A DNA stretch of 34,034 nucleotides from assembly GCA_035701135.1 (NCBI GenBank), contig DASSNZ010000412.1:1-34034 (forward strand), given 5' to 3'. Positions 31,437 to 34,034 of the stretch are shown in pieces. The position numbers were made by a program, and so were the translations under genes. Under the pieces are notes generated by a model that was not told the origin of the DNA, ran no database searches, and saw only the letters and a program-made list of their open reading frames with translations. Origin of the DNA: Verrucomicrobiia bacterium. Lineage in GTDB: Bacteria > Verrucomicrobiota > Verrucomicrobiia > Limisphaerales > DASXHY01. How positions within the stretch are numbered: position 1 is the stretch's first letter; every line of letters begins with the position of its first letter.

Positions 31437-34034
31437 TTAACCCACGACGATGTTCACCAGTTTCTTTGGCACAACGATGATTTTCCTGATCGTTTTTCCT
31501 TCGATGAACGGTTTGATCTTTTCGCTTGCCTGCGCCGCGGTTTCGATTTGTTGCTGCGTCGCATCCGCTGGAACAACAATTTTGTCGCGCAGCTTGCCGT
31601 TCACCTGAACGGGAATTTTCAACGTGTCTTCAACGAGCAACCCCGGATCGAATTTCGGCCATTGAGCGTAAGCCAGCGCGATTCGATGTTCAGTGTTCGA
31701 TGTTCGGTGTTCGATGTTCAACTTTTCCCAAAGTTCCTCCGCCAGATGCGGCGCGAACGGCTGGAGCAAAATCAAAAAATCGCGCAGCGCGGAAACCGGT
31801 TTTGTTTTCCACGTCATCGCTTCGTTGATGAAAACCATCAGGGCGGAAATCGCGGTGTTGAACCGCAGACCGTCCAGATCTTCGGTGACTTTTTTGATCG
31901 TCGCGTGAAGTGTTTTCAGTTGAGCCGGCGTCGGCTGGACCTCTTTGATGGCGGAACTCAGTTTGATCAATTGCAGCAATTCGCCGCGTCTTTCCGCGTT
32001 CGCGGTGGTTTCCGCCTGTTCAAATTCCGTTTCGGATTTTTCATCCACGAACAAGCGCCAGACGCGGCCGAGAAAACGATACACGCCTTCGACGCCTTTT
32101 GTGTTCCATGGTTTTGTGTCCTGAAGCGGGCCCATGAACATTTCGTAAAGGCGAAATGCGTCCGCGCCGTATTCCTTCAAAATGTCGTCGGGATTAACGA
32201 CGTTGCCGCGCGACTTCGACATTTTCTGTCCGTCCTCACCGAGAATAAGTCCCTGATTGACGAGTTTGAAAAACGGTTCCGGCGTCGAGACGTAGCCGAG
32301 ATCGAACAAAACCTTGTGCCAGAAACGCGCGTAAAGCAGATGGAGAACGGCGTGTTCCGTGCCGCCGACGTATAAATCAACTCCTGGCATCGTTGATTTG
32401 AGTCCAATGTCCGCCAACATTGGGCTTTGGACTTTAGCCTTTGGACTCTCCGCGCCCATCCAATAATTCTCCGCCTCTTTGCCAACAAAAGTTTGCGGAT
32501 TCTGCGAGTCAAGATAACGCAAATAATACCAGCAACTGCCCGCCCATTGCGGCATCGTGTTCGTTTCGCGAACGGAACCATCGGGCAAGTTTACCCAATC
32601 TTTCGCGCGCGCGAGCGGCGGCTGGCCATCGGGTGTGGGTTTGTAATCGTCAAGCTTTGGCGGAAGAACGGGCAACTCGGATTCCGGCAACGCTTCGTGA
32701 TAAAGATTTCCGTTCGCGTCGCGTTTCCAAACAATGGGAAACGGCTCGCCCCAATAACGTTGACGCGAAAAAAGCCAGTCGCGCAGTTTGTAATTGATGG
32801 TGCGTTTGCCGAGATTTTTTTCCTCCAACCACGCAATGATTTTTTGTTTGGCTTCAGCGGTGGGAAGTCCATTTAAGAATTCTGAACTGATTGCAATTCC
32901 GGTGTCTTCAAAAGCTTTGAAGTCGGATAAAATTTCACCCGCCTTCGGCTCTCGGGAGACTTCTGCATAAATTACCCTTCCATATTCAGCATCCAGAATG
33001 ACTTCGAACTTACGAATATCCGCCAAAGCATTCTCTAAAGTTTGAGTCCAGTGAGAGTGTGGATATACAACCTGTTTGATTGGCAGGCTAAATTTCCTCG
33101 CAAATTCGTAATCTCTTTGATCGTGCGCAGGCACGGCCATGATTGCGCCAGTTCCGTAACTCGCTAAAACATAATCTGCAATCCAGATCGGAATTTTTTC
33201 GCCGTTCACCGGATTGATTGCGTAAGCGCCGGTGAACACGCCGGTTTTTTCTTTGGCCAGCTCCGTGCGTTCCAAATCCGATTTTTTGGCAACATCCGAT
33301 TTATACTTTGCAACCACTTCGCGTTGTTCCGGCGTCGTAATTTGGTCAACGAGTTTGTGTTCTGGCGCAAGCACCATGTAAGTCGCGCCGAACAAAGTGT
33401 CGGGGCGCGTGGTGAACACGCGAATTTTTGAATCGGCAATCGGCAATCGGCAATCGGCAATCGCAAAATCCACTTCAGCTCCTTCACTACGCCCGATCCA
33501 GTTTCGCTGCATCTCCTTTAGCGAATGGCTCCAGTCAATTGTGTCGAGGTCCTGCAACAATCGCTCGGCGTAATCCGTGATGCGCAGCATCCATTGGCGC
33601 ATCGGTTTGCGGACGACAGCAAATCCGCCAATTTCAGATTTTCCGTCCACTACCTCTTCGTTGGCCAAAACGGTTCCGAGTTCTTCGCACCAATTCACCG
33701 GCGCTTCACTCACGTAGGCGAGGCGTTTGGAATCGCGATAAGCGCGGCGGGGAGAATCGAGCGATACTGTGCCGCCAGCATCTTCCTGGCAGTCGGGACC
33801 TGCCGACAAGATGTCGGCAGCACATTTCAATTCCTCCGGGTATTCCAACGTCTCAATCGGCTCAGCCTTGTTCGTTTTCGGATTGAACCACGAATTATAC
33901 AGCTTCAGAAAAATCCATTGCGTCCATTTAAAATAATTCGGATCGGTCGTGTTCACTTCACGCGACCAGTCGTAGCTGAAGCCGAGGGATTTTATCTGGC
34001 GCTTGAAATTGCTGATATTCGCCTCGGTCGTGAC
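31437..34034 (-). CDS. leuS: Leucyl-tRNA synthetase (N-terminus outside the window)
   Basis: The frame stays open to nt 34034; the listed M at 33956 is an internal GTG in the segment [25 protein letters not shown]. Class I LeuS blocks are [69 protein letters not shown] and KMSKSRGN. Confidence 0.95.
31682..31723. repeat. Six tandem heptanucleotides (TTCGRTG-like), 42 nt, inside leuS
   Basis: The units are ttcgatg, ttcagtg, ttcgatg, ttcggtg, ttcgatg and ttcaact. On the coding strand the tract reads [15 protein letters not shown]. Confidence 0.85.
32426..32446. repeat. Three tandem heptanucleotides (TTTGGAC TTTAGCC TTTGGAC), 21 nt, inside leuS and adjacent to a hairpin at 32401-32426
   Basis: Read directly from the sequence. 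The tract encodes SPKAKVQ. The hairpin is AGTCCAATGT-CCGCCA-ACATTGGGCT, with 7 perfect pairs plus 2 more beyond one mismatch. Confidence 0.8.
33431..33465. repeat. Tandem heptanucleotide AATCGGC x4 plus one degenerate unit (AATCGCA) inside leuS
   Basis: Read directly: aatcggc aatcggc aatcggc aatcggc aatcgca. The tract encodes [13 protein letters not shown]. Confidence 0.85.

Follow-up and report, generated by a model that had tools for sequence, protein, structure and literature searches.

In-frame selfish DNA in housekeeping genes is a textbook phenomenon only for Rickettsia. As summarised in PMC10969869, Rickettsia palindromic elements (RPEs) are dispersed palindromes that lie in frame in unrelated housekeeping genes and are translated as an extra peptide compatible with the protein fold (Ogata et al. 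2000, via PMC10969869). Here we describe behaviour of this type in leuS, the gene for leucyl-tRNA synthetase (LeuRS), of a soil Verrucomicrobiia bacterium (Limisphaerales; assembly GCA_035701135.1, contig DASSNZ010000412.1); the window analysed is the whole 34,034-nt contig. The window leuS contains five in-frame islands: one palindrome resembling repetitive extragenic palindromic (REP) elements, three tandem arrays of heptanucleotides (heptamers) and one unique segment. On balance we favour the view that such islands are tolerated repeat cassettes, copied or gene-converted into permissive LeuRS loops, and that they are selfish or neutral DNA and not an adaptation of the enzyme.

To the extent that RPEs are covered in that summary, both systems place stop-free sequence in frame in conserved genes (here Island 0 of the window, sites 0-2 of its orthologues and rdgB of the relative L116), and in both the same families also occur in non-coding DNA, here in flanks read from related genomes. 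The host here belongs to another phylum, Verrucomicrobiota, and the likeness is one of behaviour and not of membership, no sequence relation to the ten RPE families being expected. The present elements measure 30-90 nt against the ~100-150 nt given there for RPEs, many of them are heptamers in tandem or palindromes with arms made of such tandem heptamers, several families interchange at the same orthologous sites throughout the clade, and one array is conserved at synonymous sites.

The arrays have at least three head-to-tail copies, beyond chance, as do tandem heptanucleotides elsewhere, which include the cyanobacterial short tandemly repeated repetitive (STRR) sequences, GGGAATC of Xanthomonas and Nostoc (PMC4692102) and TAACTGA of Beggiatoaceae (PMC4679880). 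According to the survey as cited in these papers, heptanucleotides are the commonest simple repeats with units of 5-11 nt in most of the bacterial genomes covered, and polymerase slippage was proposed as the cause (Mrazek et al. 2007, via PMC4679880, PMC4692102). The arrays described here resemble these repeats in forming short tandem sets (2-6 copies for TAACTGA, PMC4679880; about four units preferred by the G-rich heptamers of Xanthomonas and Nostoc, PMC4692102), in having units characteristic of the genome and, outside leuS, in lying mostly just upstream of starts or at gene ends. The described repeats, however, are reported as mainly intergenic and depleted from coding DNA, or as confined to hypothetical proteins, whereas those found here share the reading frame of an essential aminoacyl-tRNA synthetase and of rdgB, at sites that are conserved. 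Because the units are many, not G-rich and free of G-runs, G-quadruplex formation is not the reason for a length of four to five units.

Short dispersed palindromes, often near gene ends and mobilised by REP-associated tyrosine transposases (RAYTs), are known as REP or REPIN elements (PMC3116915). The palindromes in our sample share with them the short dispersed form, the position near gene ends and the grouping into sequence families within a genome, but REPs are extragenic by definition and have not been described as occupying fixed sites in frame. Contingency loci, too, have repeats within an open reading frame (ORF) whose unit length is not divisible by three. In leuS, however, all eight orthologues compared have 4.7 units, and the gene is essential and always in frame, so that there is no indication of on/off switching. 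Elhai et al. are said to have described, in Genome Research in 2008, very small dispersed repeats of ~21-27 nt in Nostoc that often lie within tandem heptamers and are sometimes intragenic; these differ in lineage and in sequence, and we know of no conserved intragenic hot spots or synonymous-site conservation in their description. Our literature searches found no account of heptanucleotide repeats that are in frame within essential genes at conserved positions, and none of in-frame repeat-cassette behaviour in Verrucomicrobiota.

Five in-frame islands in leuS

The leuS stop codon is at 31437-31439 and the 5' end of the gene lies beyond the contig edge, with ~90-150 N-terminal codons past the contig end. 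All LeuRS Pfam domains are present (PF00133, PF09334, PF13603 and PF08264), the protein matches Thermus thermophilus LeuRS with E = 5e-166, and the matches listed include ~120 orthologues of 70-75% identity, named as Limisphaerales, Verrucomicrobiota or Verrucomicrobia subdivision 3. Every island aligns to a gap or a shorter loop of T. thermophilus LeuRS; their placement on LeuRS domains combines this alignment with what we take to be the general architecture of the enzyme. A preliminary description made from the sequence had proposed at least four in-frame repeat-type inserts in this gene, with three period-7 arrays among them. Tandem Repeats Finder (TRF) recovered all three arrays where they had been placed, and a palindrome that had been overlooked brings the number of islands to five (Table 1). 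The central proposal, that repeat DNA is read in frame within an intact essential gene, is thereby borne out.

Table 1. Coordinates of leuS, its islands and other repeat features; positions are those of the window unless a related locus is named.
Feature	Position	Strand	Details
leuS (leucyl-tRNA synthetase)	31437..34034	minus	865 codons + stop, single open frame
Island 0, in-frame REP-like palindrome	33750..33840	minus	RNA fold -44.4 kcal/mol, z = -5.4, 0/200 shuffles as stable
Island 1, heptamer array, sense ATTGCCG x 4.7	33426..33464	minus	TRF 100% matches, perfect over 33431-33463
Island 4, unique non-repetitive 49-aa insert (YPHSHWTQ...EILSDF), aa 324-372	32919..33065	minus	lineage-specific
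Island 2, degenerate heptamer array, sense AGTCCAA, with remnant inverted arm (TTGGACT)	32385..32453	minus	TRF 4.0 copies, 76%
Island 3, heptamer array, sense GAACATC, with 14-nt sub-period	31677..31727	minus	TRF 5.4 copies, 80%; period 14, 92%
Intergenic hairpin, arms = inverted 8-nt tandem arrays (ACGCAGAG type)	5180..5300	minus	fold -54.2 kcal/mol, z = -5.2
ahcY-leader heptamer arrays	L001:20245-20275; L010:14815-14845; L011:18358-18374; L164:15452-15476; L165:15636-15666		

The variable peptide of Island 0 (aa 70-91, nt 33762-33827) lies within a clade-specific insertion of ~56 aa (nt 33729-33896) that lacks a counterpart in T. thermophilus LeuRS and is presumably situated just ahead of the ZN-1 region. 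The island is hypervariable in the alignment of 120 orthologues. One of its arms, 24 nt long, matches site 0 of three relatives (L004, L164 and L082) at 92-96% and, more weakly, that of L084 (86% over 35 nt); no second copy of the palindrome was found within the window. Island 1 encodes a 13-residue peptide at the entry to the CP1 editing domain, and TRF reports its unit as AATCGGC, with 4.7 copies in 33 nt. Island 2 sits between YWMG and GVDLYVGG and contains a 28-nt TRF array (32420-32447, unit TTGGACT); its hairpin is not significant in the window (z = -0.83), strong hairpins at this site being found only in relatives, and site 2 of L081, L084 and L091 has fuller versions of the same unit as an array plus an inverted array. 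Island 3, near the end of the anticodon-binding domain, contains a TRF array of 39 nt (31682-31720, unit TTCGATG). The repeat cassettes of the window leuS thus measure 39-91 nt each, and an Rfam scan of the window gave nothing at the gathering threshold. An AlphaFold model of the truncated protein, built with 68 close homologues, was poor (mean predicted local distance difference test score, pLDDT, 62.7; predicted template modelling score, pTM, 0.35), with islands 0, 2 and 4 in segments of pLDDT < 50.

Island 4 is of a different nature. It lies late in the editing domain, has a GC content of 0.44, shows neither RNA structure (z = -0.13) nor a Pfam match, and occupies a site at which most orthologues have ~12 aa and others have unrelated fillings of 30-60 aa. 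The low-GC block at 32821-33120 that had been pointed out here is real (GC 0.42 against 0.51 over the whole gene), although it is wider than the insert itself, and low GC was rejected as a mark of foreign DNA because the conserved LeuRS flanks of the island are equally low.

The sizes of the arrays did not fit the first account of them. Tracts given as 42, 21 and 35 nt measure 39, 28 and 33 nt, and the proposed filter, in which only multiples of 21 nt would preserve the frame, does not describe arrays of 28-39 nt, a site-1 island that is 15 nt longer than its ancestral loop, or the many site-3 arrays that have the ancestral length of 39 nt. In the other 31 kb of the window, period 7 gave only two weak TRF rows (22592-22607 and 25462-25485), and no perfect period-7 run of at least 17 nt was present outside the leuS arrays. 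The three array units also match the window at other positions (5069, 5097, 13057, 30803 and others), but these matches were rejected as arrays, being isolated, mismatched and in ordinary coding sequence.

LeuRS is an enzyme whose modular insertion history has been described (PMC3643597). The window protein has no leucine-specific domain, T. thermophilus residues 583-636 having no counterpart in it, and shows instead the tetrapeptide GEDG (aa 599-602, nt 32229-32240) before KMSKS, similar to the GKDG linker of Mycoplasma mobile LeuRS (PMC3643597).

The same sites are filled across the clade

An alignment of the 120 closest LeuRS proteins (887-1289 aa) has hypervariable fillings at the same five sites in nearly all members. 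On this alignment the islands are a clade trait and not a strain oddity. Many fillings show a 7-residue period (for example ADCGLRIAD, STLNPQPST, SNPKSEIRNPKS, ASRITHHAS and SPQSTVHSPQS) that back-translates to tandem heptamers of other units. DNA from ~70 orthologous loci revealed three types of filling: single, unstructured heptamer arrays; strong palindromes (fold z = -4 to -10) whose arms are two inverted heptamer arrays; and REP-like palindromes without periodicity, which encode, for example, GSSRCDDRTAQRAVPT, VAAVCDRRH...GHRPPLQ and SRGRQSA...DVGGY. In all of these assemblies the fillings between the conserved anchors are in frame and free of stops, and a search for leuS genes frameshifted at the arrays found none among the loci checked, where failures of the search pattern were ordinary sequence variants.

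In distant Verrucomicrobia (~52% identity) site 2 comprises only 2 aa, and sites 1 and 3 comprise 8 aa each. The ancestral site-1 loop is 24 nt long. Site 3 was ancestrally a 39-nt non-repeat segment, A(R/K)LHSTFGQxAPS, which in many orthologues is replaced by arrays of varied units, many of them of the same 39 nt, and the orthologues form a graded series from non-repeat to repeat in which the length does not change.

Because the contig is metagenomic and the gene is cut at its end, one might suspect an assembly error in repeats, or an insert that is not translated, such as an intein or a translational bypass. Yet the arrays are shorter than one sequencing read, and in-frame, stop-free cassettes occupy the same sites in ~70 independent assemblies from different projects; cassettes of 39-91 nt are also far too short for inteins, no Pfam family matches the longest insert, of 49 aa, and nothing in the window matches Rfam. 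We give explanations of this kind practically no weight.

Some relatives have true domains in these places. Site 2 of L063 (11471-12034) contains an in-frame insert of ~190 aa that matches Pfam PBECR3 (E = 5e-16), a phage-Barnase-EndoU-ColicinE5/D-RelE-like nuclease, so that a nuclease-like domain lies within LeuRS; the same is seen in P0017, P0088, P0098 and P0107. In P0092 and P0105 an insert of ~70 aa in the editing domain, at a position corresponding to window aa ~232 (nt ~33340), has a precomputed match to PF05198, which we take to be the N-terminal domain of IF3.

An array conserved at synonymous sites

The site-1 peptide is found in eight orthologues (the window, L081-L083 and L164-L167) whose leuS genes are 72-83% identical to one another in nucleotide sequence. 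Despite this divergence, the 33-nt array is identical in seven of the eight and differs in the eighth by one synonymous change. Variable bases number 2 of 33 in the array against 1166 of 2415 (48%) gene-wide, and synonymous differences affect 1 of 10 internal array codons against 378 of 459 amino-acid-invariant codons elsewhere, a difference for which we estimate P ~ 2e-6 from the codon counts with a binomial model. When windows of ten invariant codons were slid along the gene (n = 461), two or fewer variable codons were seen only over the site-1 array. All eight arrays have 4.7 units, with no series of steps of +/-21 nt, which contradicts the free expansion that had been assumed for them. Conservation is not confined to site 1, as L082 and L166, at 78% gene identity, have an identical 33-nt AAATCCG array at site 2. 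Decay is also seen: L087 and L063 each have three point changes at site 1, and L111 retains the site-1 peptide KISDCGLPANDL on DNA that has lost its period.

The comparison of orthologues that had been suggested as a check thus shows the site-1 peptide recurring in many of them, and this leaves a repeat origin standing since the peptide recurs because the DNA repeat itself is conserved. The 15-nt difference from the ancestral loop is impossible by unit-wise expansion, which makes repeated re-creation of the array unlikely and indicates instead that it is old and has been kept pure. Both homogenisation, within the array or from other copies, and selection on the nucleic acid fit this conservation.

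Selection on the protein does not. If the inserts were adaptations of LeuRS itself, forming new loops that bind tRNA or a partner while the DNA periodicity is incidental, one could point to their position at domain junctions of a modular enzyme (presumed from the alignment and general knowledge of LeuRS), to the L111 peptide that is conserved without a DNA repeat, and to the real domains, such as PBECR3 at site 2, that some relatives have at these sites. A 7-nt sub-period is, however, meaningless at the protein level, selection on a peptide cannot freeze synonymous sites, near-identical enzymes have unrelated fillings, and the same sequences are present in non-coding DNA; we consider this explanation very improbable.

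Cassettes are replaced whole

Several lines of evidence show that the cassettes change by replacement. Orthologues with at least 98% core identity have identical island contents with one exception, P0026 and P0041 (98%), in which site 2 is wholly different, an inverted-heptamer hairpin in one and a REP-like palindrome in the other, while the remaining islands are identical. Pairs at 94-98% core identity differ by whole cassettes; for instance, P0008, P0016 and P0023 (94-95%) have sites 2 and 3 in common and differ at sites 0, 1 and 4. One palindrome is found at both site 1 and site 2 of P0089. Among ten genomes with clean arrays at both sites 2 and 3, six have the identical unit at the two sites, the unit differing between genomes, against a permutation mean of 0.88 (p < 0.0005). 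Stepwise changes in copy number by slippage were not seen between relatives, all differences being cassette replacements or point changes. The swaps and the concordance of units, neither of which is predicted by independent local slippage, point to an exchange of sequence among the repeats of a genome, by copying or gene conversion, or to recombination of cassettes between lineages.

These observations bear on a purely local origin, in which a chance 7-nt duplication would grow in place by replication slippage and frame-preserving variants would survive, with no copying between loci. The prevalence of heptanucleotides in bacteria and the slippage proposed for it, as reported in PMC4679880 and PMC4692102, would speak for such an origin, as would the incorporation of native flanking codons into some arrays and the graded site-3 series at constant length. 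It is harder to reconcile with 12 of 20 unit classes being common to leuS and unrelated loci when fewer than one is expected (see below), with sites 2 and 3 carrying the same unit within genomes, with 4.7 units in eight of eight orthologues and no +/-21-nt series, with a site-1 island that departs from the ancestral loop by 15 nt, a multiple of neither 7 nor 21, and with the occupation of the same sites by non-periodic palindromes. We therefore think that slippage in place, by itself, is improbable as the full account.

The repeat families extend beyond leuS

The loci of the clade sample amount to 1.05 Mb, ~20 kb being read per genome, and outgroup loci to 1.5 Mb. In the clade DNA, period 7 accounts for 36 perfect arrays of at least three copies, whereas periods 5, 6 and 8 give 2, 3 and 1, and the larger outgroup sample yielded 6 perfect period-7 arrays; the period-7 excess is specific to the clade. 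The leuS locus, ~18% of the DNA sampled, holds 25 of the 36, 24 of them in coding sequence and one in the 5' leader of L083, and among arrays with a TRF score of at least 40 there are 68 within leuS and 29 outside. In both settings the lengths cluster at 27-34 nt, with ~31-33 nt (4.4-4.7 units) preferred. When units were grouped into strand-neutral classes, 12 of the 20 classes seen outside leuS were common to the leuS arrays, where we estimate that fewer than one would be shared by chance given ~1,170 possible strand-neutral heptamer classes. Palindromes of leuS likewise recur in the flanking DNA of relatives (L001 at 8638, L011 at 7806, L010 at 18731 and L116 at 4890). The inserts had been said to look like intergenic repeat material; the same kinds of repeat do occur in the intergenic DNA of related genomes, and the same unit classes are found elsewhere in them.

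Gene calls were available for seven loci, and in these the arrays outside leuS are intergenic or no more than ~30 codons from the end of a gene; they form inverted pairs at gene ends or immediately precede start codons. Five genomes have a heptamer array directly upstream of the start codon of ahcY, the gene for S-adenosylhomocysteine hydrolase (Table 1), with units that differ between genomes, and the array may be a conserved feature of this 5' leader. Arrays also lie just upstream of leuS in L081 (9024-9108) and L083 (9953-9991), those of L081 being an inverted pair of AAAGTCC, the unit that also fills its leuS site 2; the equivalent stretch of the window gene falls outside the contig.

A second gene with an island is rdgB (Ham1 family, Pfam E = 1e-54 to 1e-58), in which the variable segment directly precedes the conserved LADDSGLEVD motif. 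In L094 (7860-7891) it is a heptamer array encoding ATQNSKLKTQN, in L116 (4890-4942) a REP-like palindrome encoding LVGTSRCDVRMAQRAVPT, and in L007 (6798-7577) a long GC-rich insert, and in L083 it is short. A further array, in L013 at 9747, was not counted as genic since its host, an 821-aa ORF, has no Pfam match, and a protein search with concatenated array peptides returned mostly short, Pfam-less ORFs across long arrays and did not reveal real carrier families. With its five islands, leuS is still the exception among the genes sampled.

An alternative is that the arrays, or at least the one at site 1, are selected cis-acting DNA or RNA elements within coding sequence to which the reading frame is accommodated secondarily, for example platforms for a sequence-specific protein or RNA, as has been proposed for 5'-leader heptamer repeats of other bacteria. 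This would explain why the site-1 array is the most conserved leuS stretch in eight orthologues, synonymous sites included, and it agrees with the identical AAATCCG array of L082 and L166, with an array length of 31-33 nt preferred in every context, with the constant placement of an array immediately before ahcY in five genomes, and with L111, where the peptide was kept while the periodicity decayed, so that array purity depends on lineage. Close relatives, however, lack the site-1 array or have unrelated cassettes instead, the units are not the same from one genome or site to the next, no RNA structure is predicted for single arrays, and nothing in the window reaches an Rfam gathering threshold; nor do we know of a candidate factor that would bind the arrays. 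We regard a selected element of this kind as unlikely overall, if deserving of attention at site 1.

Proposed origin of the islands

The reading that we prefer, tolerated cassettes spread by copying, can be put as a sequence of steps. The clade ancestor would have gained segments coding for dispensable loops where the modules of the enzyme meet: ahead of ZN-1, at the entry to the CP1 editing domain and again near its exit, ahead of the second half of the catalytic fold and at the end of the anticodon-binding domain. These segments may then have behaved as intergenic DNA under a filter for frame and absence of stops, being colonised, overwritten and homogenised by the short repeat families of the lineage. 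Spread and renewal would proceed by copying or gene conversion between repeat copies, together with homogenisation inside each array; translation would turn the cassettes into short loop extensions, mostly hydrophilic, which LeuRS tolerates, and selection would purge only stops, frameshifts and harmful peptides. Segments colonised, overwritten and homogenised in this manner match the behaviour of RPEs to the extent that it is set out in PMC10969869, and so the analogy with these elements, already drawn in the preliminary description, holds as a family resemblance.

Several points weigh against this proposal. That the islands are translated is deduced from their open frame and lack of stops in ~70 assemblies. 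We identified no copying enzyme, target-site duplication or insertion scar in the ~20 kb read per genome. Some arrays appear to have been seeded from native codons (ATT-GCN-GA at site 1, and the GAATTC of conserved E-F codons in L006), which fits a local birth better than insertion. Within the window the three array units are confined to leuS, and beyond rdgB no in-frame array was found in a recognised gene among the several hundred neighbouring genes sampled, so that tolerance alone does not fully explain the concentration in leuS. Finally, a selected function could explain the conservation at site 1 as well as homogenisation does. As regards enzymes, we noticed no gene for a RAYT (an IS200/IS605-type TnpA) in the Pfam annotation of the seven loci that had gene calls.

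A bolder possibility, which we hold to be doubtful, is that the heptamer arrays, far from being passive products of slippage, are discrete elements of ~31-33 nt in genome-specific dialects, written, copied or corrected by a sequence-directed process and recognised by a trans-acting factor. The process would be templated gene conversion from master copies, or it would involve a novel enzyme or RNA. If true, this would account for the fixed length, the recurrence in 5' leaders (ahcY), the concordance of units and the conservation at synonymous sites, and in their behaviour the arrays would resemble DNA uptake sequences or signals of the iteron kind, which coding regions have to accommodate. Were the arrays recognised signals, they would form a new class of cis-element embedded in coding DNA.

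With tolerated cassettes as the preferred interpretation, Rickettsia-type behaviour is now seen in free-living soil and freshwater Verrucomicrobiota. A 7-nt unit should be the least compatible with coding, yet it occupies fixed hot spots of an essential enzyme, and the islands would amount to a natural map of the positions at which LeuRS tolerates insertion. The locus also offers a tractable case for asking why heptanucleotides dominate bacterial simple repeats and what maintains them. For annotation and phylogenetics it carries a warning, as the most conserved leuS DNA is a repeat whose encoded peptide appears dispensable.

Other repeats in the window

The convergent gap between a 942-aa ORF and leuS (31280-31423) has nested inverted repeats at 31280-31369 and a GC hairpin, CGGGCAGGATGCCCG, at 31407-21, which resembles the REP-like motif coding for "RQDAGST" that is in frame at site 0 of relatives. 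The intergenic hairpin with arms of 8-nt arrays (Table 1) lies between two minus-strand genes and includes a TRF period-8 row at 5200-5225. A CCG-rich tandem repeat at 23502-23606 (period 21/24, 4.4 copies, 70-81% matches) is unrelated to the heptamer arrays.

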